Shown here: positions 8,190-58,326 of the stretch, piece after piece
How the letters are laid out: the number at the start of each line of letters is the position of its first letter
Position numbering within the stretch: the first letter of the stretch is position 1
Virus record (IMG/VR): IMGVR_UViG_3300006173_000003
Coordinates: 1 to 64,000 of that record
Direction: 5' to 3' (one strand)
From: a virus
Taxonomy: Duplodnaviria > Caudoviricetes
Length of the DNA stretch: 64,000 nt
The notes under the pieces: generated by a model
What the model was told of the DNA's origin: nothing
The model's database searches: none
Seen by the model: the letters and a program-made list of their open reading frames with translations, nothing else
Translations under genes and position numbers: made by a program

Positions 8190-8230
8190 AAATATTATTT
8201 GTGTAATACAAAATATTATTTCTACATTTG
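8190..8230 (+). promoter_or_regulatory. Rightward promoter and operator in a divergent control region
   Basis: TTTG (8198)-N21-TACATTTG (8223); palindrome TTTGT-N5-ACAAA at 8198-8212; direct repeat AAATATTATTT at 8190 and 8211. Confidence 0.8.
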
Positions 8231-10140: not shown

Positions 10141-10173
10141 TTTGGTAATAACATTTATCTAGTCGTATCTTAG
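10141..10173 (+). promoter_or_regulatory. Promoter of the replication operon
   Basis: TTTG (10141)-N21-TATCTTAG (10166), one mismatch to TAnnTTTG. Confidence 0.6.
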
Positions 10174-10234
10174 TCCTCATGTTTTTATTTAAAGCTCACT
10201 CATATGCAAAATCATAAGTTTACATAAGTATCAT

Positions 10235-10336
10235 TCTGTTTGTCTGGTCCGCAAAACAGAGGTCTAAATATTTTTTGGCGAAAGCTGAAATAAGAAGTAG
10301 CCCCCGCGAGGACCAGTCGCGGGGCTTTTCTATTTT
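10235..10336 (+). ncRNA. Structured leader with three hairpins, the last terminator-like
   Basis: Hairpin 10235-10260 (loop contains CTGGTCC), GAAA-tetraloop hairpin near 10273-10290, GC-rich stem 10299-10326 with loop GGACCAG followed by TTTCTATTTT. Confidence 0.6.
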
Positions 10337-10366
10337 ATACCTGTCCTATGCTTTACTAACCCTGAA

Positions 10367-10930
10367 TTGAATGAGAGAATGGCAAAGGAATCTTTCTGGT
10401 TTAAACACGATTACAACGCTAGGAGCGATAAAGAATTGGTCAAAGTCCGAATGAGAATGGGGTTGGCTGGTATCGGATTATACTGGTGCATCGTTGAAAT
10501 GTTATACGAAGAAGGTGGCTATCTATTACGAACCGAATACGAACGTATTTCGTTCGAATTACAAACGAAAAACGAATGTATTACGGAATTAATAGAATCG
10601 TACGCTCTATTCCAGTACGACGACAAACGGTTTTGGTCTACGTCTGTTCTTTCAAGATTAGCCACCAGAAAGGAAAAGAGCGAGAAAGCACGAGATTCAA
10701 TCAATGCAAGATGGAGCAATACGAACGTATCAGTTTCGAATTACGACAACGATACTAAGAGAGGAGAAAAGAAGAGAAGAGAAAAGAGCAGGGGGGTTAG
10801 GTTTTCGGAAGACAGATTATCTGTAATTTTTGAAGATGGATCAAGCCAGAAATTAGGGCTAGGGCAACTTCAACGGATAAAAGAGGGAGAATATCAACCA
10901 CATTACATCGAACAAGGAAAAATTGAATAG
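10367..10930 (+). CDS. Phage replication initiator / replisome organiser, DUF4373-like
   Basis: WFKHDYNARSDKELV.VRM.MG..G.GLYWCIVEMLYE motif, KRGEKKRREKS linker, immediately upstream of the primase-helicase. Confidence 0.75.
   Translation: MNERMAKESFWFKHDYNARSDKELVKVRMRMGLAGIGLYWCIVEMLYEEGGYLLRTEYERISFELQTKNECITELIESYALFQYDDKRFWSTSVLSRLATRKEKSEKARDSINARWSNTNVSVSNYDNDTKRGEKKRREKSRGVRFSEDRLSVIFEDGSSQKLGLGQLQRIKEGEYQPHYIEQGKIE
10536..10744 (+). repeat. 27-bp imperfect direct repeats (candidate iterons/origin)
   Basis: AATACGAACGTATnnnnTTCGAATTAC at 10536-10562 and 10718-10744, 23/27 identical. Confidence 0.7.
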
Positions 10931-10932
10931 GT

Positions 10933-12816
10933 ATGTACTACGACAAATTATACGATTTAGGTATAAAATTGACGCGACGGTCTGGAAACGAAAAGTGTTT
11001 TTGCCCCATTTGCCATGATGGAAGAAAGAATAAAAAAGATCGATCACTTTCTGTAAATATCACTACCGGGGAATATAAGTGTCATAATCCAGGTTGTGAT
11101 TTTAAGGGAAATGTGAGGGCTATGGAACGGAAAAGAAACGAAAAAAAATACGAAAGGCCCCCACAAGATATTATCAAATCTATTCAACTTCAAGAAAAAG
11201 CTGAACGGTGGTTTGGTTCACGCGGAATTTCTAAAAAGACGTTGGAGAAGTTTATGATTTTTAGCAGGGAAGAATATATGCCCCAAACGAGCAAAAAAGA
11301 ACATTGCATTTGCTTTCCTTATTTTCGAGATGGAAGTCTCATAAATATAAAATTCAGAACAGGTGCCAAGCATTTTAAAATGGTCAAGGATGGAGAACTT
11401 ATTCTATTCAATTTAAATACTATTGGAGATAAGAAGTTTTGCATTATTACAGAAGGTGAGATAGATTGCATGAGTTTGTATGAATCAGGTTTCGGTGCTG
11501 ACCCAATACCGGATGAAACGACGGGAGAATTGACTAACGAAAAATATAGCAAATGGTGCCAAGTTTCTGTCCCCAATGGCGCTGCAATCGGCAATCAAAA
11601 ATTAGACTATCTGGATAATTGCGCCGAATGGCTAGTGAGTATTGAAGAGTTTGTTTTAGCCACGGATGGGGATGCAGCGGGCGAACAATTAAAAATGGAA
11701 CTTATAAGACGTTTAGGTGTTGAAAGGTGCCGAGTTATTTCTTATCCTATTGAAGAATGTGTTCCTCTCGACAATGGATTAAAGCGCCGATGTAAAGATA
11801 TGAATGAAGTTTTAATGTATCTTGGTAAGGAAGTTGTTGTCAATGTTATAAATAATTCAGAATCCATACCTGTTGATGGCATTTACTATGTGGAAGATAT
11901 ATTCCCCTCGATGCTAGAGAATTTTAAAAACGGGATACAGTTAGCCCCTAAGACATACTTTGGTGAAATGGATGATTTTTTTAGGTGGAAGAAGGGAGAA
12001 ATAAACTTGATTGTGGGTCATGCAAATCATGGGAAAACTACCTTAGTTCTTCAAATGATGCTTACAAAAAGCGTATATGATGATTGGAAATGGGCAATAT
12101 TTAGCCCAGAAAATTATCCCGCCTCTGATTTTTACGATGACCTGATTGAAATGTATATTGGTAAATGGTTAGATAAAATGACAGAGGATGAATACATAGA
12201 AGGTGCTATGTTTGTAGATAAACATATATTTTATGTTTATCCAGACGATGGGCATGATATTCATTCCATCAATGAGAAGTTCAGATATCTTGTTCTAAAA
12301 AAAGGCATAGACGGAGTTTTGGTAGATCCGTTCAACCAGTTGGATCATGTTCAGAAACCATATCAGAGAGAGGATCAATATTTATCTGAAACACTTAAAG
12401 ATGTAAAGCGGTTTGCTTTACTGAATGGAATATCTTACAACATAGTTGCCCATCCTGTTAAGCAACAAAGGGATCAAGATAAGTCTATTCCTCCTGTAGA
12501 TATGTATGACATAGCAGGAGGAGCAATGTGGGCCAACAAAACAGATAATATAATTTCATACTATAGGCCAAATCATCATACTAATAAAACAAGTCCAGAA
12601 GTTGTTGTTTATCTTCAGAAAGTAAAGAGGCGAAGGACTGGAGGGAAGCCAGGGGAATTTAATATTAGAATGGATTGGGAAATAAAAAGATTTGTAGATC
12701 CTATAAGTAGAATACCCTTTTTAAACCCAAAGCGTATTGTTCAAACAGATGTGTCTAGGTCTGGTCGATTACCATATTTCGATGACACAAATCTTTTGGA
12801 TGAGTTACCGTTTTAG
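10933..12816 (+). CDS. Bifunctional primase-helicase (T7 gp4/Twinkle-like)
   Basis: Zn finger CPIC...CHNPGC; TOPRIM TEGEID and ATDGD; Walker A GHANHGKT; Walker B LVDPFNQ; IVAHP. Confidence 0.9.
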   Translation: MYYDKLYDLGIKLTRRSGNEKCFCPICHDGRKNKKDRSLSVNITTGEYKCHNPGCDFKGNVRAMERKRNEKKYERPPQDIIKSIQLQEKAERWFGSRGISKKTLEKFMIFSREEYMPQTSKKEHCICFPYFRDGSLINIKFRTGAKHFKMVKDGELILFNLNTIGDKKFCIITEGEIDCMSLYESGFGADPIPDETTGELTNEKYSKWCQVSVPNGAAIGNQKLDYLDNCAEWLVSIEEFVLATDGDAAGEQLKMELIRRLGVERCRVISYPIEECVPLDNGLKRRCKDMNEVLMYLGKEVVVNVINNSESIPVDGIYYVEDIFPSMLENFKNGIQLAPKTYFGEMDDFFRWKKGEINLIVGHANHGKTTLVLQMMLTKSVYDDWKWAIFSPENYPASDFYDDLIEMYIGKWLDKMTEDEYIEGAMFVDKHIFYVYPDDGHDIHSINEKFRYLVLKKGIDGVLVDPFNQLDHVQKPYQREDQYLSETLKDVKRFALLNGISYNIVAHPVKQQRDQDKSIPPVDMYDIAGGAMWANKTDNIISYYRPNHHTNKTSPEVVVYLQKVKRRRTGGKPGEFNIRMDWEIKRFVDPISRIPFLNPKRIVQTDVSRSGRLPYFDDTNLLDELPF

Positions 12817-13483: not shown

Positions 13484-13843
13484 ATGAATCAGCTTTTTTT
13501 CGGTAGTATTTGCCTTACAGACTTAATCGAGTTAGCAAAGAAAAAACACTCTGCTTTTACCAAAGGGAATAACGGGAAAATTTACGCTTCGGTGAACGTA
13601 TGGCTTAATGACAAGACGGATAAGTTTGGGAACATTATGTCCGTACAAGTGAATCCGACAAAAGAAATGAAGGACTTAGAAGACAGGGTTTATATTGGTA
13701 ACCTTAAGCAGTCGGATGGACCCAAGCCAATATCAGATAAAGATGCCAATGACTTGGACGTAGACATAGACGCTCCTACGTATCAAAAACCACCTACGGA
13801 TAGTGCTAATATTTCCGAACCAATTGATGATTTACCCTTTTAA
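13484..13843 (+). CDS. Single-stranded DNA-binding-like protein
   Basis: Small beta-rich protein (GSICLTD, NGKIY..VNVW, YIGN) ending in the acidic DDLPF tail. Confidence 0.65.
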   Translation: MNQLFFGSICLTDLIELAKKKHSAFTKGNNGKIYASVNVWLNDKTDKFGNIMSVQVNPTKEMKDLEDRVYIGNLKQSDGPKPISDKDANDLDVDIDAPTYQKPPTDSANISEPIDDLPF

Positions 13844-13853
13844 AATATTCAAT

Positions 13854-14222
13854 ATGGGAAAATATCTAACAGTTGAAGAGAGGTTGAAAGTCCTCGAACT
13901 AAAAAAACAAGGGATGCAGCAAAAGAACATTGCCAAGGTAATAGGCCGGTCTCCATCTGCCGTATCTTACCTTATCAACAAAGGAGAATATTCTGTACTA
14001 AGAATGAAAGTAGATGCAGAAGTACCTCAAAAGACAAAGGACGCGGAACGACCTCCGGAGAAAGACCTGTCTTCTTTACCAGATACCGTTCTTTTCAAAC
14101 ACGTAAACTGGGCTATACCCATACTTATAGTCATTGTTATTGGGGTGTCTTCATGTGCTTCAAAGAGAAAAATTCAACATGATCCACATCCAATTTTAAA
14201 TATGAAAGGAAGGGTACTATGA
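13854..14222 (+). CDS. HTH protein with a C-terminal hydrophobic segment and lipobox-like motif
   Basis: LTVEERLKVLELKKQGMQQKNIAKVIGRSPSAVS (HTH), then WAIPILIVIVIGVSSC. Confidence 0.6.
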   Translation: MGKYLTVEERLKVLELKKQGMQQKNIAKVIGRSPSAVSYLINKGEYSVLRMKVDAEVPQKTKDAERPPEKDLSSLPDTVLFKHVNWAIPILIVIVIGVSSCASKRKIQHDPHPILNMKGRVL

Positions 14223-14392
14223 AGCTAATTATAGTTGGAGTTATATTTTTCTATTCCTGCTGTCCTTCCAGAGATCCGAAAACTGGAAAATTTTGGACAA
14301 GTGAGCATGTATGGAAGAGAATGGTAGCCAGAAACTTTAACCACTGTAAAATTTACTATGACCGATTTGATAACCCAATACCTTACAAGTAA
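14219..14392 (+). CDS. Small lipoprotein (57 aa, not in the ORF track)
   Basis: MKLIIVGVIFFYSCC; overlaps both neighbours (ATGA and TAATG). Confidence 0.6.
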   Translation: MKLIIVGVIFFYSCCPSRDPKTGKFWTSEHVWKRMVARNFNHCKIYYDRFDNPIPYK

Positions 14393-15036
14393 TGTGGACT
14401 AATTTCTTTTCTCGGATAGTTTTGATAAATCTTCGCAGCAGGCCGGATAGACTTATAGAAAGTTCATTGGAATTAAAACGGCACAAGATACCATTTGAAG
14501 TGGTCAATGGCATAAAGAACGAAAACGGGCAGCAAGGAATATCAGATACGTTGAGGGGGCTATTCCGGAACTCCCTTGATGCCGGACATCGTAATTTATT
14601 GGTATTCGAGGATGATGTCCAAATGGTAGTAGAACCAGAGGAATTTGAACGAGTAATGGATTTGGCCTTAATTGAACTTCCATATAACTATGATATGCTG
14701 TACCTGGGGGCTAATTTACCTAACCCCAGAAGAGTATCCGAATATTCCGCCCATTTGCTGAGAACAATTCGTGCTCTTGCTCTTCATGCTGTAGCCTATA
14801 GTCGCCGTGGAATGGAAGAAATACTTTCACTGGAACCACGGTTGCCTATTGACCTCCAAATAGCTGAGGAGATCAACACGGCAGGAGGTTCATTCGTAAC
14901 CTATCCCCTACTTTGTACTCAGAAAGAATCGTTCTCAGATATCGAAAAGAGACCTACAAACTATGCCTGCTTCATTGAAGACCGATACAAGGAAGTAGAA
15001 AAATATTTGGGATTATCTAAAAGTTCCTTACCTTAG
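14392..15036 (+). CDS. Glycosyltransferase family 25
   Basis: INLRSRPDR, LVFEDD, DMLYLG, ALHAVAYS, LCTQ. Confidence 0.85.
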   Translation: MWTNFFSRIVLINLRSRPDRLIESSLELKRHKIPFEVVNGIKNENGQQGISDTLRGLFRNSLDAGHRNLLVFEDDVQMVVEPEEFERVMDLALIELPYNYDMLYLGANLPNPRRVSEYSAHLLRTIRALALHAVAYSRRGMEEILSLEPRLPIDLQIAEEINTAGGSFVTYPLLCTQKESFSDIEKRPTNYACFIEDRYKEVEKYLGLSKSSLP

Positions 15037-15040
15037 CACT

Positions 15041-15167
15041 GCTTCAGAAAACCTCAATGTAACAAATTTATCATTTTTCTTTTTTAAGATAGAGAGTTAC
15101 CGCAGGTTGAATTCTTGATGTTTTACGACGTTAGGTTTTCTGAAGCCCCTGCGGTAACTCTTTTTTA
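15041..15167 (+). promoter_or_regulatory. Two interleaved perfect 14-bp inverted repeats ending in a U-tract (attenuator, pseudoknot or invertible element)
   Basis: A 15041-15054 pairs with A' 15133-15146; B 15093-15106 pairs with B' 15148-15161; T run follows; ATG at 15171. Confidence 0.7.
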
Positions 15168-15170
15168 TTT

Positions 15171-15863
15171 ATGAAACTATCTCTCGCCATAACTAACTTC
15201 AATAGGTATGATCTGCTGCTTAAATCCTTTGAGCAAATGGTGGATGATTCTAGGATTTCAGAAATAATAATTTACGACGATGCGAGTGACTGGGATGTTC
15301 AGGAGTCCCTAAGAGAATTAGTGAAGGGATTCCCCGACAAAGTAAAACTTTTCCTTGGAGTAAAAAATGTCGGCATGAGCCGAGCAAAAAGAAACGCCAT
15401 TTCGTTATGCGAAAATGAATTTGCGATTATCCTAGACTCAGACAACGTTATATCCCCGTCATATATCGATGCACTGGAAGGATTCTTCTGGGACGACGGA
15501 ACGATTATGATGCCGGAGATGGCGGCTCCTAATTTTGACTATCGGGCGTTCTCTGGCGTAACATTCGATTCAAGCAACGTGAACGAGTATTTGGATAGGC
15601 CGCTATTCGAAGCCCTACTAAATACGTCGAATTATGTAGTTCCTGTTTTGGAATATTTGAAAGTCTATCAGGAAGACAAAACAGTAAAAGAAACAGACAC
15701 AGTTCACTTCGCATACCATTGGCTGAGAAATGGATACCAGTTTAAGGTAATTGAAGGACTCCGGTATGATCATCTTGTACATCCTGATAGCGGCTGGTTA
15801 AAGAACGCTTCATACAACTCAGCAAGAGGAAAACAAACTATTGAACAAATACGGGCGCTATGA
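15171..15863 (+). CDS. Glycosyltransferase family 2 (GT-A)
   Basis: LAITNFNR, IIYDDAS, NVGMSRAKRNAI, IILDSDN. Confidence 0.85.
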   Translation: MKLSLAITNFNRYDLLLKSFEQMVDDSRISEIIIYDDASDWDVQESLRELVKGFPDKVKLFLGVKNVGMSRAKRNAISLCENEFAIILDSDNVISPSYIDALEGFFWDDGTIMMPEMAAPNFDYRAFSGVTFDSSNVNEYLDRPLFEALLNTSNYVVPVLEYLKVYQEDKTVKETDTVHFAYHWLRNGYQFKVIEGLRYDHLVHPDSGWLKNASYNSARGKQTIEQIRAL

Positions 15864-20273: not shown

Positions 20274-20450
20274 ATGCCAGCAAGATTCTTCAAAAAACCT
20301 CCAAAAACAACCTGCTCTAAATGCGGGAATCCGATTGATCGAAATGGCAGATATTGTAAATCCTGTCATAAAGAGTATATGCGAGCCCAAAGAAGGAAAC
20401 AGCGGGCAGAACTGGAAGAATTGAGAAATTTTAAAATGACACATGTATGA
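20274..20450 (+). CDS. Small double-CxxC Zn-ribbon protein (58 aa, not in the ORF track)
   Basis: MPARFFKKPPKTTCSKCGNPIDRNGRYCKSCHKEYMR...; ATGA overlap with 20447. The listed 20227-20424 ORF is a different frame. Confidence 0.65.
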   Translation: MPARFFKKPPKTTCSKCGNPIDRNGRYCKSCHKEYMRAQRRKQRAELEELRNFKMTHV

Positions 20451-21249: not shown

Positions 21250-21924
21250 TTGGGCCAGCCAATCGACATAGTAGCTCAAAGGGCAATGGACTTGCACCTG
21301 GGAAATTTCAGATCGAACAGTGATTTTTTTGATCTGAGTGATTATGCCTACTATGTAGGCGCGGAAGTAGCCGATCTTTTCCGTCAGGAGTACATGCAAA
21401 AATACGGAGAGCTTCGGCAGGAAAAGAGCGATTCAATGGTAGAGTTCGATCCGACATGGTTAAACGAAAAAGAGTTGGATGTGGAGATAAAAGACGGTCG
21501 ATACTTTGCCAAACTGGATTTCGGTTTCATGAATTTTCCATATGATGCGCAGTCTACCGGCATACAGTCAGTAATTTCCATTACACCGAACTACGGGAAG
21601 GAATTGCAGCGCGTGACGCTCAATCAGGTTTGGCAACTACAATACATCCCAGCGACCAATGAAATATTTTTTCAGCCAGAGAAAACAAGGCTGAATATTT
21701 TCAAGTACGGAACGGCCAACACCAACAAGATAAAAGTTTTTTACATCCCGGCCATCAGTGAAGATATGGAAGTGCCAGATGGTCTTGTCGAGTTGGCAAT
21801 AACGAACACCATCAGTAAGATGAAGGGACTGCTGCAAGGAAATGTGGTGAAGAAGTCCATAGACGGCAACATCAACCGGGTCATGGAAACTGAAATTGAT
21901 AAAGATCAACTCAAACAACATTGA
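21250..21924 (+). CDS. Putative head-tail connector / ring protein
   Basis: 224 aa, TTG start, first gene of the tail/ejection block. Confidence 0.5.
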   Translation: MGQPIDIVAQRAMDLHLGNFRSNSDFFDLSDYAYYVGAEVADLFRQEYMQKYGELRQEKSDSMVEFDPTWLNEKELDVEIKDGRYFAKLDFGFMNFPYDAQSTGIQSVISITPNYGKELQRVTLNQVWQLQYIPATNEIFFQPEKTRLNIFKYGTANTNKIKVFYIPAISEDMEVPDGLVELAITNTISKMKGLLQGNVVKKSIDGNINRVMETEIDKDQLKQH

Positions 21925-23060
21925 TCGATACTGAATCCATAGCGAAGAATATAACTCTAGCCGATGGGCTGAATGAATATCTGGCCCTGCGTCAAATAGA
22001 CAAGCGGAAGTACTATCCGATGTACTTAATCTCTGCTAAGCAGACATGGAAGGAAATGTTCGAGGGGACTATTTATGTGATGACCTCTGTGTGGAAGACA
22101 GTAAAGGCCGGAGATCCGTATCCATATGTTGACGTTCCCAGGGATGCGCAGCGGATTTTTTCAGTAGGTATAGAAGATCATTGTGGCGATATAAAGACGC
22201 TGTACTATAACAATAGGATGAATATCATCCCTAAACCTACTGAAAAAAAATGCGGGTGTACTGATTGTGATTGTGGCGGGATGTGTGAAGAAGTCAATTC
22301 CACCATTCTAACTACGAAAGTCCTGTTCAATATTTCGGGGGTAGATTACGTGGAAAAAACGTACCTAAAATATTGTTCGAATGGGGATATGATCGAATAT
22401 AAGGAAACGCCTGTCAAAAAGTACAACGACTTTAAAGGGGATGGGGGGGATTTTAATAATGACTACGGGTCGGACTACTCTGGAGGAAGCTCTGCTTTCC
22501 CTAACTTCACTATCGTTACTAACACGACGCAAAGAAAGATTTGCAGCCTTCAAACGAAACCATGTGGATGCCCAGTTGACTCGTCGGAGAACGAACACAT
22601 TCTTTTGGAATCCTGCGGATGCTTTCTTCCCTTCTTTGGTCGTCATAGAAAACAACATTGCGATAAGTTTCTTGCAGACACAAACACTTCGGAATACGGC
22701 TCAGTAAAAATAAGTGAATGTGGGAGTAAGATTTATTTCCAGCCGGGACACAAAAACCACCACCACCACCATAGAGACCATAAAAGGATTCCAGATTTCC
22801 TTTTGGTCATATATCAGACAGGCGGGGAGCCAAAGAACATTACGGAACAGGTGATGATTCCAGACGTGGCCGCATATAAGAATTGCTTATGGACCGGAAT
22901 TGACTGGCAATCAAAACGGTTTAACAATAAATATCCGGCCAACGAAAAGCAGTTGGCCAAGTATCAATATAACGATGCGTCAAACGGTTTAGTAGGATAC
23001 CTTAACCCGTTAAACATGGCAGACCTTGCAGATATGCAGGATTTGCCCCATAAATGGTGA
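21921..23060 (+). CDS. Putative tail ring protein with Cys- and His-rich insertions
   Basis: 379 aa; CGCTDCDC, CGC repeats, HKNHHHHHRDH; position in the tail block. Confidence 0.5.
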   Translation: MIDTESIAKNITLADGLNEYLALRQIDKRKYYPMYLISAKQTWKEMFEGTIYVMTSVWKTVKAGDPYPYVDVPRDAQRIFSVGIEDHCGDIKTLYYNNRMNIIPKPTEKKCGCTDCDCGGMCEEVNSTILTTKVLFNISGVDYVEKTYLKYCSNGDMIEYKETPVKKYNDFKGDGGDFNNDYGSDYSGGSSAFPNFTIVTNTTQRKICSLQTKPCGCPVDSSENEHILLESCGCFLPFFGRHRKQHCDKFLADTNTSEYGSVKISECGSKIYFQPGHKNHHHHHRDHKRIPDFLLVIYQTGGEPKNITEQVMIPDVAAYKNCLWTGIDWQSKRFNNKYPANEKQLAKYQYNDASNGLVGYLNPLNMADLADMQDLPHKW

Positions 23061-26012: not shown

Positions 26013-29000
26013 TGGGAAAGTCAGTAAGAAGTAATAACCCTTTTGTACTGGGTGCGGAAGACTCCGATCAAATACCAGTAAAGCAGCAGCCACAACAGCA
26101 GCCGAACAATCCTTTTGTCTTAGGCGCACAAGACTCTCACTATGTAAAAAAAAAAGCTGGTGGCGACGGTTCTGCCTCCGATACTTCCCATACTCCATCC
26201 GAATCTCCAGAACAAGCCGCTAAAGCATTTCAGGATAAGACGCTAACCAAACAGTCTGTAGACGTATTGGCTGATACAGACGCCGGAAAGAAAGCTGGCC
26301 TTAACAATATGTCCCCCGATGCCAGGGAAGTGTTTGCGCAAGCTCATAATGGCCCAAAGAAGTCGGATCTTGTTCAGTCTGTGACAGGGATACTTGATAC
26401 CTATTTCCCAAAAAGCCTAGACCCTGCGCAGAATAAAAAGACCTTCGACATGAAGCAGGCCATATTACAGGGCAATCAGGATGCTATCATAGGAACAAGG
26501 GACAATCTTATTCAAGGATTGCAAAAAAAGATTGATCAGAGAAAGAACGAGATATACCGACCTTTGCCGGGAACTCTTGGAGCGAAACAGTATTCCGACG
26601 CCCTATTGGAAGCGGACGCTACAATACAACAGTTAAAGGCTCAGCAGAAAAAAGTAACCGATTCGTTCAATGAGTACGGTAAGCAGTCGTTGGTAAGTAG
26701 TAAGGACATGGAGGCGTGGCTGAAATTAGATGCCGAACACCCAAACATCCAAACGAGTATCGCTTCCGAAAAACTGGGAAAGGCAGTCGAAGAAAAATAT
26801 GGCATCGAACGTGAAACCCCCAACAAGGAACACGACCGAATGGCTTCAGGTATGCGCCTTATCATGCAAAGTCTTCAAATGGATGTTAATGAGGCATTGG
26901 CTTATGGCATTCCTACTAAGAACCCGGAACTTCTAAAAAAGGCTCAGGATAAAATAGCCACACTGGCCCGGTATCGGGATATGTATGAAAAGCTGGATAC
27001 AGAACAATTCCCAGACGTTGGCTTAGATAAAACTGCCCGTTTTTTAGGAGATATTATAGCTGAAAAACACCCAAACAAGCTCATTCGCACCGCGGCTGAT
27101 GTAAGAGAAGCGGGGAAGATAGCCAACGAACGGAATCCGGGGTTCATGGATAAGTACGGGAAGTTTGTAGAGACTGCGGCCCAAAAGCAAGATCAGGGAA
27201 CATTTATTCCCCGTGGTGGTGGAGTGATTAATGAATTTGTGGGAGGCGTGATATCTGCGTCCGCAAGAAATGCCCTTGACCTTCTGAAATGGAAGGCCAG
27301 AGCCGGTACTTTGTCGGAGACAGATAAGACCGACTTGTCAAGGGAAACGTCTCCGGGCCTGAGAGGGACAACCCAATCCGGAACGGAAACAACCAAAATA
27401 ACCTACGACAAGGAAGGGAAGGCGTATCGGGAACTCCCCAACGAAAACTACAGCACCCTACCTTGGAATAACTTCTTCCGTTTTGCAGGAGAAAGTGCGC
27501 CGGGGCTGGCTGAGTTTATAGCCGCCGAGGGAACGGCAAAAGTGGCAACCGAGGCACTTTCTTTTGGAAGGGCCGGTGCTGCAACGAAACAGTTTGCTGG
27601 ATTACTTGGAGCCACTTACTTAACAAGCTATAACAGCAATAGAGAGTTTGCAGATGCTAACATTGACGATAAAACATCCACAGGTGAGGCAAAAAAGATC
27701 GTATTAGCTAACCTTCTTACGGTGGCAAATGCTGGGGTTTTTCATGCATTGGGTGCATCTCCATCTAAACTTGTAGAAAAAGCAATATCTAAAGCTGTAA
27801 CTCCTGACGTGCTTGAAGTGCTGGAAAAGAACTCGTGGGAACAATTGAGTCAGAAAACCGCAGAAAAATTATTGAAGGATAAAATACTCCCTCGCGCAAA
27901 GGCTATCGTCCAAAAGTTCGGAGAAAATTTAGAAGGAGGAGCAAAGATGGGGGCCGCGTCCGTAATCGATCAAAAGATACATGATCTGGCCGGGGTGATG
28001 ACTAATACAAACTATAGGCCATCCACGGTAGAAGACAATGCCCGTTCTTTTGTGCAGCAGGCTCTACTTATGACTGTTGTTGGGTTGCCAGGAATGATCT
28101 CTTCCGGGGCCATGCCGCATACTACCAGGGAAGCGCTTCATGAGGCTGGACTATATGGACCTCAATACATCGACCAAATAAATGAGCGAGTACAGAATGG
28201 GGACTTAGACCCGGTAAAGGCCAACGGCATGATTGCCATGATAAAAACCATGCATGAAGAGTTGGGAAAAGCAGCCAAGGAAACCAACGACGACGGAACC
28301 CCTTTAACAATCCATCAGCAGCGTGATTTAGCCATAGCTAACTTTCGGAAGAGAGCCGCTGCGTCTATGGAAGAACAGGGATTGCCTGTTTCAAAAGAAG
28401 GGGCTGAGTCTGAGGCGGACAAAGACATCAAAAACATCAAGCAGCAAAATAATTGGCAGAACATTGAAGACACCCCTACCTTTAAATCCATAAAAGAACA
28501 GCAGGGGAAAGCGTTAGAGAGTTCGCTAAGGAACAAGGAAGACGTACAAAACGCATTAGATAATGATAAATCATTAACCGATAAGCAGAGAAATAATTTA
28601 GAAAAAGCAATAGAGAATATTGACGAATATATAGAGATGTTTAAATCTCAAAAACCAGTTGAATCTTTATCTGATATAGATCCCACTGCCCGATATTATT
28701 ACGAGAAAGACGGAAAAATAGTATTGGAGAGTGGAAGCGATCTTATTCACCATTTAGAAACAGGAGACATTTATGAAAAAGAGAAGCCTGACAATAAAAA
28801 AACACCCACTGAAAAAACCGAAAATACTGAAGTTAAAGGCAAAGATGCCGAAGATAAAAAAACATCCGCTATAGCGCAACCCGTTTCTGAAAAAGGGAAA
28901 GCGGCCATAAAAGAGGCGAATGAAAGGGAAAAAGAAGTAGAAGATGCCGGTTTTAATTTTTTGACCCAAGAAGATGATGGAGAGTTTTATAATAAAAACA

Positions 29001-36092: not shown

Positions 36093-38318
36093 ATGGGTAA
36101 ACTGATTCAAATATGGGAACATGCGGTAACAATTCCTGAGCCAAAGGACAAAAGAGATATTCTTTTCTTTGACCAAAAAGACCCGTATTGGATAAGGGAA
36201 GAGGCCCTGAGTGATTATCGGGATATCTTCTGGAATTTTGTTCCCAGGCACACAAAGTTGTATCAGTCGGCAACGCTTTATGATCAGGACGGTGTTTTGA
36301 TTTCCCTTAACAAAGATGACAGTGATTATGTGGTGAGAACATATGAGCGAGAAATGTATCGACGCACATATGGGGTTCACGTAAAGATGGGTAAGGAAAT
36401 AGTCTGGTTGACCGGAGATCATTGGTTCATATTAGCACACTGCAAAACGAAAAGGCCAGATAAAAAATCTGACTATTTTGACTTTAGGAAGTTTCAGGCT
36501 AAATTCCTTATGTTGCTATGGTATGTGAACTTTCATCCGTGGGCAGAAGGAGGAGTATTCAGCAAGGCAAAAAAAACCGGGATAACAAATCTGATGTGGC
36601 TTTATTATTTAAACAAAGCCACAATGACTAAGAATGTGAACCTCGGAAATATGAATATCGACTTAGATAAGGGGGCAAAAACATTTAGGGACCATTTTCT
36701 GTACGCCTATCATGGTCTTCCTATGTCATTAAAGCCGCAAATAAAAAGTCTTACGGAGAGAGAAGGGAAAGTTGTTTTCGGTCAACAGTTTACTAATTCA
36801 AAAAAAGCCAGATTAATTCAATCCGATGCCGATAGCGAACTAGGAACATCCGTAATGTGTGTCCCTACTATGATGCAGGCGTTTGACGTTGACGTGTTTT
36901 CTGATACATGGTACGATGAATTTGTTAAACCAAAGCAGGACTTCGGAGAGATATATAGGTCTAATGAGGCTGCAACAAACTTGCAAGACACGTCCATCGG
37001 GAAAAGATGGCTAACATCGTATACGCCAGAAGAATCAGGCCCCTCTTTTTATTCTGGGAAGCAGATATTTTATGATTCAGAGCTTTCGACGATGAATAAG
37101 CCGGGGAATAAGGGGAAAACAACCAGCCGGATGATTTGCGCCCACATTCCCGCATACGAATCTTGGTCGTCTTCTTTCGATAAGTATGGAGAGTGTAACG
37201 AAAAAGACGCAATGGAGAAAATAAAAGACGGTAGGGATAGGTTACGTGGACGCCCAAGAGAATTACAAGCGGAAGTTCGTCGTTATGCCAATACTAAAAA
37301 AGAAGCATGGTCGGTAGGTGGTATTGGTAGTGTGTTTGACAACATGAGACTGGGCTCACTGCTATCCGAAATAGAATCAGAAGAAAGGGATATCACAGGT
37401 AATATGTATGTGGAGGGTGATTTGAAATGGGAAAATGAAATATGGAACATACAAGCGTCCCGACGTCGGAAGGGGGAATTTTGCCGACTTAGATTTGTTC
37501 CTTTATCGGAAGATGAAAAAGAAAAAGGTGAATCCGGAAAGTTCAGGATGTACTACGATATACCAAGAGACCATCAAAATCTAGCGTTGAAATTTGGTAA
37601 AGATGAGTGGGGGTGCTTAATCCCACCCAGTAAATTTCCTTACGTTTTAGGTGGAGATCCGACATCATATGCTAGTGCTTCTGAGACAATAGAGGGGTCT
37701 AAAAATGGAGGATACGTGTTTAGTATGCCAGATGAATTGACCGATGCTCGGATGCGTAGAGTTGCCTCAAAAATAATGATTATTGAATATTTCGACCGGC
37801 CAGAGTCGCCGGACGAGGCTTTTAACGATTATCTTAAATTGATATTGTATACTGGGGCTTTGGCAAATATTGAAGCCAACCAGTCCTACGTATGTACCCG
37901 GTTGATGGAAGAGGGGCTGGGTCGGTTCATGCTGGTGAAGGATGAAAATGGGATTGTCACTCTTTGGAAGCGATGGATGGGGCTGGCGCATGAATCTGAA
38001 AAGTCCTATAAGTTCATACGTACAACGGCCAACGCTGACAGCAAAGACATGCTCGAAACAATTGTCCGGCTGATAAAAGCGTACTTTGAGAAGCCAGCAG
38101 AAGGTGGAAAGGACTATGGGGCTACCTTTAAATCGGCAAGAGCAATTAACCAGTTGATGAACGTGGACATAACAAATACAAAGGTGTTTGACTTGTTCAT
38201 GGCACTGGGGTATGCCCTTTTTGGGGTGGAATATTATCAGGATATCCTCTTATCTGAGCAATCCGAAGAGCAAGACCCGGAAAACATATCCAGCGTACTT
38301 TCAGCCTTTGAATTGTAA
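36093..38318 (+). CDS. terL: Terminase large subunit
   Basis: Variant Walker A SKAKKTG, Walker B WYDE, nuclease motifs GGDPT, NIEAN, DLFMA. Confidence 0.85.
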   Translation: MGKLIQIWEHAVTIPEPKDKRDILFFDQKDPYWIREEALSDYRDIFWNFVPRHTKLYQSATLYDQDGVLISLNKDDSDYVVRTYEREMYRRTYGVHVKMGKEIVWLTGDHWFILAHCKTKRPDKKSDYFDFRKFQAKFLMLLWYVNFHPWAEGGVFSKAKKTGITNLMWLYYLNKATMTKNVNLGNMNIDLDKGAKTFRDHFLYAYHGLPMSLKPQIKSLTEREGKVVFGQQFTNSKKARLIQSDADSELGTSVMCVPTMMQAFDVDVFSDTWYDEFVKPKQDFGEIYRSNEAATNLQDTSIGKRWLTSYTPEESGPSFYSGKQIFYDSELSTMNKPGNKGKTTSRMICAHIPAYESWSSSFDKYGECNEKDAMEKIKDGRDRLRGRPRELQAEVRRYANTKKEAWSVGGIGSVFDNMRLGSLLSEIESEERDITGNMYVEGDLKWENEIWNIQASRRRKGEFCRLRFVPLSEDEKEKGESGKFRMYYDIPRDHQNLALKFGKDEWGCLIPPSKFPYVLGGDPTSYASASETIEGSKNGGYVFSMPDELTDARMRRVASKIMIIEYFDRPESPDEAFNDYLKLILYTGALANIEANQSYVCTRLMEEGLGRFMLVKDENGIVTLWKRWMGLAHESEKSYKFIRTTANADSKDMLETIVRLIKAYFEKPAEGGKDYGATFKSARAINQLMNVDITNTKVFDLFMALGYALFGVEYYQDILLSEQSEEQDPENISSVLSAFEL

Positions 38319-57546: not shown

Positions 57547-58326
57547 ATGATTGACGTATACGACTTATATCAGAGCTTTTGCAGTACATACAATTTGTAC
57601 TTAGGCGGATGGTTTCGACCTAACACCGATTTTTTGCAAAAATGCAATGATATAAGTAAGGAGTTGTGGGTAAAGTGGACGGAAGAAGCAGAGAAATCTC
57701 AGGAAGCAAAAGATAATCTTTTGCCATTTCTTGTTTCTAAGAATATCATAGTATCCAATAAGGGACCGTATGGAACTTTTCCAATCCCAAAAGATGAAGA
57801 GAAGCCATATGGAAGGTTTTCGGCAGCTAGGATCATTGTTTCGGGAAAACATTGTGTTCCTTGCAAAGAGGTAGACGGAGGCAGGTGTTCTAATGGTGAT
57901 TTTACCAGCTCGGAACAATTGGCCGAAGATTATTACAATACAATTGAGCAAACAGATGTTGATCTTGTCGATAATCAGAAATGGGGAGCTTGTAATTCTC
58001 ACTTGACTAAAAAACCTTCTCTTAAAAAGCCAAAGATGAGGCAGATAGACGATGGATTTCAGGTTGCTCCAAGGGAGGTTAGCGTTATAGTATTGGATTA
58101 TTACAGGCCACCAAAAGAGGCAACGTTTGTGTATGATAAGAGTCCGGGTAATGAACAAACTGGGGCTGGGGATATGATAATCTATGATCAGAAAAATAGC
58201 CAACCATTAGAATGGCCTTTTAATATAAGAGAAGAGTTTTTGAATCGTTTGGGACAGGCTTATGGAACTTTTACAAAGGATCAGTTTCTTAGCCAATTTT
58301 CAGCACAACAAAAAGCAGCAAGCTAA
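57547..58326 (+). CDS. Putative tail ring/tubular protein (start at ATG 57547, not 57367)
   Basis: MIDVYDLY...; VLDYYRPPKEA.F.Y...L.W pattern of ring proteins. Confidence 0.55.
   Translation: MIDVYDLYQSFCSTYNLYLGGWFRPNTDFLQKCNDISKELWVKWTEEAEKSQEAKDNLLPFLVSKNIIVSNKGPYGTFPIPKDEEKPYGRFSAARIIVSGKHCVPCKEVDGGRCSNGDFTSSEQLAEDYYNTIEQTDVDLVDNQKWGACNSHLTKKPSLKKPKMRQIDDGFQVAPREVSVIVLDYYRPPKEATFVYDKSPGNEQTGAGDMIIYDQKNSQPLEWPFNIREEFLNRLGQAYGTFTKDQFLSQFSAQQKAAS

Follow-up and report, generated by a model that had tools for sequence, protein, structure and literature searches.

A putative two-state leader RNA with interleaved helices ahead of a glycosyltransferase gene in an uncultured phage and its relatives

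Within the 64,000 nt of phage DNA analysed here (hereafter the window), two perfect inverted repeats are interleaved in one intergenic gap, just ahead of a glycosyltransferase gene. The question raised by this locus is whether such repeats act as DNA or as RNA and, if as RNA, on which strand and to what end. An earlier note on this DNA had seen in them a control of entry to a glycosyltransferase operon, and had put forward a translation-coupled attenuator or pseudoknot, an antisense RNA and an invertible switch as explanations.

Layout of the repeats and their genomic setting

The window is the first 64 kb of an IMG/VR record (IMGVR_UViG_3300006173_000003) of 73,438 bp, the completeness of which is estimated at 68 %. 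It carries long gene arrays on one strand, with a primase-helicase gene at 10933-12816, a terminase gene at 36093-38318 and, at 14.4-19.4 kb, a cluster of glycosyltransferase and methyltransferase genes. Within that cluster, the element occupies a 134-nt gap between a GT25-like ORF (14392-15036, plus strand, 214 aa) and the ORF of a GT2 glycosyltransferase (15171-15863, plus strand, 230 aa), which is the first gene 3' of it; the terminase is the sole gene that PHROGs names downstream of the element. Arm A (GCTTCAGAAAACCT) lies at 15041-15054 and its partner A' at 15133-15146, arm B (AGAGTTACCGCAGG) at 15093-15106 and its partner B' at 15148-15161. Both pairs are 100 % complementary, their order is A, B, A', B', and a single base, C15147, separates A' from B'. 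The stop codon TAG of the upstream ORF is at 15034-15036, and the fifth base after it is the first of A. At the other end, a T6 run (15161-15166) and then ATTT lead up to the GT2 ATG at 15171. Perfect inverted repeats of at least 14 bp within 170 nt occur three times in the window (A, B and a pair at 22156/22235) and not once in 20 shuffles, and the perfect interleaved 14-bp repeats described in the earlier note are present exactly where they had been placed. The third such repeat, 22156-22169/22235-22248 (TTTTTTCAGTAGGT / ACCTACTGAAAAAA), is inside a 379-aa ORF (21921-23060).

When read as plus-strand RNA, both pairings extend beyond the perfect cores. The 5' arm of helix A spans 15041-15060, in that the core at 15041-54 is followed by a bulged C15055 and by a 5-nt extension (15056-60) pairing with 15128-32, one of these five pairs being U-G, for a total of 19 pairs with the 3' arm at 15128-15146. 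At the inner end of this helix is a start-stop mini-ORF, ATG-TAA (15057-15062). An AT-rich, unpaired loop of 31 nt, L1 (15061-15091), then leads to the 5' arm of helix B (15092-15106), which pairs with 15148-15162, one base past A', to give a stem of 15-16 pairs with an energy of -26 to -28 kcal/mol. In the minimum-energy fold, loop L2 (15107-15127, 21 nt) pairs weakly with the start of A' as an inner hairpin, and A' as a whole is contained in the loop of the B:B' hairpin. Directly 3' of the stem, the U-tract runs from 15161 to 15170, with its T6 beginning at the stem's last base.

Two-mismatch copies of the helix-A 14-mer also occur at 10799-10812 (minus strand), 20287-20300 (plus), 26762-26775 (plus) and 57814-57827 (minus), i.e. 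four copies vs about 0.5 expected from shuffles, mostly in coding sequence; they could be targets in trans or due to chance. The copy at 20287 is in the intergenic stretch that follows the glycan cluster's last gene, where CCTC directly after it is shared as well. An origin of the element as a MITE or through target duplication was considered and rejected, as the 9-bp direct repeat TCTTTTTTA (15078/15159) overlaps B' and flanks no clean unit.

The placement of the element at an operon's entry, as the earlier note had it, gives way to a different picture once related loci are compared. An alignment of GT2 homologues led to the retrieval of 160 loci from metagenomes and IMG/VR. The sequence 5' of GT2 could be read in 137 of them, and in 108 of these the preceding gene runs up to or into GT2, its stop codon overlapping or adjoining the GT2 start. 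That preceding gene is usually a homologue of the GT25-like ORF, lying directly 5' of GT2 in 69 related loci and generally overlapping it. Thus, the GT25-like and GT2 genes are normally overlapping, translationally coupled genes, and, because the GT2 start usually overlaps or abuts the upstream stop, the 134-nt gap is best described as an insertion within a normally coupled pair. A leader before GT2 was found only in the window, in the genome G001 and in locus L029 (the last with a different upstream gene), and four other relatives carry the leader immediately after GT2.

Recurrence of the architecture in related phages

Related uncultured phages have the same A-B-A'-B' layout, with unrelated helix sequences, at another 12 sites, 11 of them distinct. 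The resulting 13 instances (12 distinct) are those of the window, L093, L029, L046 (two), L040, L092, L028 (identical to L106), L039, L149, L192, L193 (identical to L196) and L217. All 13 are intergenic and on the gene strand, and 3' of each come a U-tract and, within 4-26 nt, a start codon. Helix A has 11-23 pairs and helix B about 10-15, whereas the loops range from 11 to 32 nt for L1 (11-17 nt in L040, L093 and L192) and from 9 to 25 nt for L2; L3, the spacer between A' and B', is 0-3 nt in 11 of the 13. L029 and L093 have a gap of equal size and an identical layout, with other helix sequences. L093 belongs to G001, the closest available relative, the primase of which is 67 % identical, and the closest relatives of the GT2 protein, from Logan assemblies, are 98, 86 (P0002) and 63 % identical.

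Most of these instances came from a scan that is anchored on T-runs and that uses RNAduplex to match B' with upstream sequence and then A' with sequence further upstream. The instances of the window, L029 and L093 are the sole ones to have been found with no T-run required, the scan adding those of L046 (two), L040, L092, L028/L106, L039, L149, L192, L193/L196 and L217; hence, the U-tract is not independent evidence for most of the additional instances. Pairs of helices that both reach -20 kcal/mol or lower behind T-runs numbered eight in real sequence vs one in shuffled sequence, and whole-genome scans gave exactly one strong element each in the window's own record (G000), G001 and the complete genome G002, whereas G003 gave none. 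When interleaved helices of at least 9 bp were sought without gaps, the result was noisy (20 matches vs about 11 in shuffles), and the duplex scan at -15 kcal/mol stayed at shuffle level in whole genomes, for which reasons only strong matches are used here. Searches by blastn against the phage collection, exact-pattern scans and single-protein scans of IMG/VR returned no DNA relatives, a degenerate pattern of B' plus T-run gave only three matches, which are unrelated and coding, and further GT2-bearing genome contigs are those of distant, mostly cyanobacterial relatives without the element.

The genes that flank the instances are diverse. Downstream are genes for GT2, GT11, two unknown families, a NUMOD-type homing endonuclease and a PD-(D/E)XK protein, as well as the pre-primase gene, whereas the upstream genes (GT25-like, DUF922, GT2 and methyltransferase) are mutually unrelated. 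Since the flanking genes differ, the element can be regarded as a portable cassette, and its neighbours suggest that it travels with selfish or accessory genes. Rfam yielded no match overlapping the element at E<=1 in the window or at E<=0.1 in nine instance loci, the C4 family included. Judged from sequence, what is new here is a conserved, uncatalogued leader RNA architecture that recurs with different sequences.

As to individual neighbours, the next gene after the element is homing-endonuclease-like at L039 (3853-4533) and L046 (6152-6844), with NUMOD3/NUMOD4 motifs and with PD-(D/E)XK plus HTH, respectively, and an internal plus-strand promoter of the kind found in T4 homing-endonuclease genes is absent in eight of nine instances. 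In both the window (13803-14222) and L029 (82-480), an HTH_38 protein is encoded two genes 5' of the element, the two being 43 % identical; this conserved protein is a candidate regulator.

Strand, promoter and a two-state reading of the leader

Several lines of evidence bear on whether the helices are a matter of DNA or of RNA. The plus-strand RNA of the window folds with z = -4.85 vs z = -2.4 for the minus strand, and its minimum-energy structure is the B:B' hairpin with the U-tract, so that the terminator-like appearance noted earlier, with A' in the loop, is borne out by the fold, by the 15-16-bp stem and by the T6. Across nine instances, the pairs comprise 128 G-C, 142 A-U and 23 G-U, compared to a single A-C 1x1 mismatch, and the arms fold worse when taken from the minus strand (B in eight of nine, A in six of nine), sometimes by 7-12 kcal/mol. 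The preponderance of G-U over A-C, together with the mostly weaker folds of the opposite strand, indicates a plus-strand RNA. A MAFFT alignment of the instances leaves the helices unaligned, and the loop sequences are not conserved; complementarity was assessed by comparing cognate with non-cognate arms. Although the arms are only about 45-50 % identical between instances, cognate A/A' pairs average -23.1 kcal/mol vs -5.4 for non-cognate ones, and cognate B/B' pairs -20.0 vs -7.1, whereas the cross pairings A:B' and B:A' are weak (about -4 kcal/mol). Close comparisons fit this pattern: between the window and L093, a C-G pair in helix B is swapped to G-C, and between L192 and L193 there are three changes in L1 and one from G-C to G-U in B. 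Thus, related phages keep both helices by means of different sequences, with arms that pair specifically with their own partners.

The two helices share no nucleotides, and their order is the S1-S2-S1'-S2' of an H-type pseudoknot. However, a classical H-type stack is impossible, because an L3 of 0-3 nt would have to span 17-23 bp, and by geometry the full helices should be unable to coexist end to end in L040, L093 and L192, because an L1 of 11-17 nt faces 34-38 stacked bp. The loop lengths of the window (L1 31 nt, L2 21 nt) do fit an end-to-end arrangement, and side-by-side packing of both helices as a pseudoknot is conceivable. In constrained folds, the energy difference between the A state and the B state ranges from -5.7 to +6.7 kcal/mol over the instances, and an RNA that ends at A' folds into A:A' in nine of nine.

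Upstream of helix A, the window contains a sequence of the Bacteroidota promoter type that the earlier note missed. A -33-like box, TTTG (15006-15009, plus strand), is followed after 19 nt by a -7-like box, TACCTTAG (15029-15036, plus strand), which departs by one mismatch from the sigma-A consensus TAnnTTTG. The sigma-A box TAnnTTTG of Flavobacterium is at -12 to -5, and 5' UTRs there have a median length of 24-32 nt (PMC9723704). By that spacing, transcription would start at G15041, i.e. on the first base of A, and would produce a leader of 130 nt; the start of A is therefore the predicted 5' end of a transcript driven from the boxes at 15006-15036. What argues for this putative promoter is its recurrence at one place, in that 12 of the 13 instances have a box of the form TAnnTT[T/A][G/A] whose end is 3-5 nt short of A (4 nt in eight, 3 nt in one and 5 nt in three, L029 being ambiguous), against a background of 0.0025 per position and although the finding of instances made no use of sequence upstream of helix A. 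In the MAFFT alignment, G15041 never varies, and neither do T, A, T and T of the box. The -33 box is often degenerate in other instances (TTAG, GTTG, TTAA), and in Flavobacterium it was likewise not recovered globally (PMC7366714). Genome-wide there are six matches to the strict pattern TTTG-N18-21-TAnnTT[AT]G, of which those at 8198, 10141 and 15006 are intergenic and on the plus strand, and the identical TAnnTTAG variant stands at the head of the replication-operon leader (10166-73); at up to one mismatch, the pattern occurs 53 times vs about 28 in shuffles, which makes any single match weak on its own.

Based on these data, the reading that is preferred here, at a probability of about 0.5, is that the element is a promoter-proximal leader of two states that decides whether transcription stops or runs on. 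A host-type promoter at 15006-15036, recognized by Bacteroidota sigma-A, would start a plus-strand RNA at G15041, and the first 20 nt of this transcript (A) would pair with A' in the loop of the terminator-like B:B' hairpin (15-16 bp plus U6), which ends 9 nt before the GT2 start codon. Because A' is transcribed before B', A:A' should form first. It would trap B in a closed loop and place a long, rigid helix flush against B', and would thereby delay or prevent formation of the terminator hairpin during the time that RNA polymerase spends on the U-tract, with read-through into GT2 and later genes as the outcome. If, on the other hand, A were unavailable, B:B' would close, transcription would end at about 15162-15168 and a leader RNA of about 125 nt would be left. 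Candidates for blocking A are a ribosome on the AUG-UAA mini-ORF, a ribosome that finishes the upstream ORF on read-through transcripts, and an RNA or protein acting in trans. The odds on this mechanism are about even; we infer that the promoter is active and that transcription terminates, and likewise the direction and the trigger of the switch. Structures that immediately adjoin a terminator can suppress termination without sequence overlap, given a short spacer (bioRxiv 10.64898/2026.06.17.733018), and that precedent would apply to A:A' by analogy, with a differing geometry in that A' is inside the terminator's loop.

The terminator itself is of an unusual form. The B:B' loop is 41 nt and contains A', as opposed to the 3-8 nt of a compact intrinsic terminator, a simple scan for the terminator consensus does not call it, and compact terminators are present elsewhere in the phage genome. 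The U-tract could instead belong to an A/U-rich translation-initiation region of the type typical of Bacteroidota. No Q-like or NusG-like antiterminator protein was recognized by a search that was made without Q families. In seven of nine instances, the inner end of helix A has an ATG, 12-21 nt away from the predicted +1. Leader-peptide attenuation was not adopted, because the leader ORFs range from 1 to 36 codons with stops at inconsistent positions, their peptides are not conserved and several of the instances are interrelated.

Among the alternatives, the one deserving most weight, unlikely as it seems, is a static folded leader or small RNA, in which either the helices, wholly or in large part, coexist as an extended pseudoknot that buries the 5' end, shapes the stretch ahead of the U-rich start site and so sets the stability or translation of the GT2 mRNA, or B:B' with U6 is a constitutive, leaky terminator giving a stable RNA of about 125 nt. 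Bacterial RNAs are commonly stabilized by 5'-terminal helices, the absence of shared nucleotides means that the sequence does not force the helices to be exclusive, the lengths of L1 and L2 in the window would permit an end-to-end arrangement, and a start codon is within 4-26 nt in all instances. However, that start codon is covered by neither helix, the spacing limits given above bar a classical H-type stack and, in three instances, any bridging of stacked helices, and the loops vary widely in length, as would be expected if the pairings alone matter. A leader RNA acting in trans, by which terminated leaders pair with A/A' of new transcripts, prevent A:A' in cis and so maintain a self-reinforcing off state, would add to the cis two-state model as opposed to replacing it, and is improbable. 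For it speak the B state, in which A and A' are both unpaired, the surplus of A-like copies in the window and the precedent of phage P4, whose CI RNA is processed from its own leader and pairs with seqA and seqC to cause premature termination (PMC4825925). The likeness to P4 CI and to the c4 RNA of P1/P7 extends to complementary segments internal to the leader of a phage operon, to premature termination and to the possibility of a leader-derived RNA (PMC4825925). In P4, however, there are three sites, a processed trans-acting RNA and lysogeny, whereas the present phage has no lysogeny genes that could be seen, no integrase that could be found, no sign of processing and no Rfam match, and its extra A-like copies are mismatched and mostly coding. 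More doubtful still is a translation-coupled attenuator without a promoter of its own, in which translation of the GT25-like ORF would settle whether A:A' or B:B' forms, since the ribosome that completes it masks A. It is true that the end of the upstream stop is separated from A by 4 nt in the window and by 3-4 nt in L093 and one instance of L046 (L046a). Elsewhere, though, the distance is 11-21 nt, which is beyond the reach of a terminating ribosome, and the upstream genes are unrelated between instances, whereas the -7-like box keeps its 3-5 nt. Since the distance from promoter to A is fixed in 12 of 13 instances, and the window's promoter boxes are in the last 10 codons of the GT25-like ORF, with its stop inside the -7 box, the closeness of A to the stop is a by-product. 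Hence, the earlier note was right that A starts 5 nt after the stop, but the footprint of a terminating ribosome does not carry over to distances that vary from 3 to 21 nt; likewise, its class of RNA attenuator or pseudoknot stands, given helices that are kept and G-U pairs on the plus strand, whereas its coupling to translation does not.

The two readings that depend on the minus strand or on the DNA itself fare worst. An antisense RNA that masks A, starting from the minus-strand box TAAATTTG, is very improbable. The -7-type element reported for that strand is indeed there, CAAATTTA at 15063-15070 being TAAATTTG on the minus strand and a strict match to TAnnTTTG, but no TTTG stands at 18-21 nt as a -33 partner (plus-strand 15089-15096 lacks CAAA), no minus-strand box recurs at a fixed position across the instances, and, because L1 is AT-rich, loose boxes arise in it by chance; the one in the window is accordingly judged incidental. 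An inversion by recombination between A and A', which would flip 15055-15132, destroy the terminator and turn the minus-strand -7 box towards GT2, is the least credible proposal. In its favour are the perfect 14-bp repeats, the wealth of invertases in Bacteroidota hosts and, as a matter of logic only, the fact that a flipped B would be a direct copy of B'. Also, as with the invertons of Bacteroides, there are inverted repeats ahead of glycan genes in a Bacteroidota setting. Unlike those, however, the promoter-like box lies upstream of A and thus outside the repeats, and the strand asymmetry is of the RNA type. The segment, at 78 bp, is shorter than invertons are known to be, the relatives' A helices are imperfect or bulged, and the minus-strand box inside is the unpartnered, non-conserved one just described. 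Tyrosine and serine recombinases (PF00589, PF00239) are absent from G000, G001 and the complete G002, which extends to the whole record and two relatives the earlier statement that no recombinase is visible in the window, a host enzyme being possible. Inversion would in addition leave the conservation of B:B' and the fixed upstream promoter box unexplained. Strand asymmetry, the specificity of the arms, the lack of a recombinase and the state of the minus-strand box together make both inversion and antisense control unlikely.

Known systems, significance and a second leader

The two-state leader has partial likenesses in several well-studied systems. With trp and pyr leaders and the expression platforms of riboswitches, it shares a promoter-proximal position, a hairpin and U-tract before the gene, an earlier competing helix and states that are nearly iso-energetic. 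Classical antiterminators, however, share nucleotides with the terminator, whereas A:A' and B:B' share none and would compete, if at all, by interleaving and abutment, and the conserved leader peptide or ligand-pocket sequence of classical attenuators and riboswitches is not seen in the present element. A further analogue is tug-of-war antitermination (Bushhouse, Fu & Lucks, bioRxiv 10.64898/2026.06.17.733018), where a stable structure sits about 1 nt from the terminator, comparable to the L3 of 0-3 nt in 11 of the 13 instances; there, the structure is upstream of the whole terminator, whereas here its 3' arm is inside the loop, abutting B', and the helix uses the 5' end of the transcript. The late-gene checkpoint of lambda (PR'-6S RNA-tR' with Q) is alike in having a terminator about 130-200 nt past the promoter, a long rightward gene array and a unique genomic site, but it needs no helix from the 5' end to the loop. 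The PeSL cassettes of T4-like phages (PMC4122927, PMC2839356) are likewise small, composite units with variable junctions in a plastic region, sometimes near homing-endonuclease genes. In those, however, the stem-loop is upstream of the promoter and copies share sequence, whereas here the structure is downstream, only the architecture is shared and there is about one element per genome.

If the two-state model is true, the element would be a natural case of antitermination without overlap between sensor helix and terminator, conserved across diverged phages; the principle itself was proposed only recently, from engineered and ZTP riboswitches. It would also mean that the glycan-modification cluster of a Bacteroidota phage, a setting in which the control of transcription is almost unknown, holds an internal, separately controlled transcription unit. 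Additionally, the promoter, 5'-end clamp and terminator would form a compact part with which to probe how the topology of nascent RNA affects termination. A caution for annotation follows as well, in that short interleaved inverted repeats in Bacteroidota DNA should not be called invertons until strand asymmetry has been checked.

A second promoter-proximal leader, at 10141-10340, bears on how general such an arrangement may be. It begins with TTTG-N21-TATCTTAG and continues with a first hairpin, the loop of which is CTGGTCC (10244-50), and with a compact terminator whose 7-nt loop, GGACCAG (10310-16), is the exact complement of CTGGTCC. The orthologous leader of G001 retains the loop pairing with other letters (GTGGCAG/CTGCCAC), and L192 and L193 have the long interleaved form at the orthologous position. 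These correspondences point to a common design, namely pairing between the terminator's loop and a part of the leader that is made early. A tentative extension, possible but less probable than the two-state model for the present element, is that this is a general and undescribed way of gating terminators, whereby an early segment, be it the 5' end or the loop of a first hairpin, engages the terminator loop without shared nucleotides, and whereby long interleaved and 7-nt kissing forms interconvert at orthologous positions. In that case, gating would act by topology or sterics, and a leader released by termination might also affect later transcripts in trans.

Just past this second leader, the conserved CCTATG start context of the pre-primase gene (10345-10356) opens only a 3-codon frame in the window (ATG CTT TAC TAA). 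The same context opens the full gene in G001 and L193, whereas the ORF listed for the window starts with TTG at 10367, and the window's pre-primase gene may have undergone a start shift or a frameshift.
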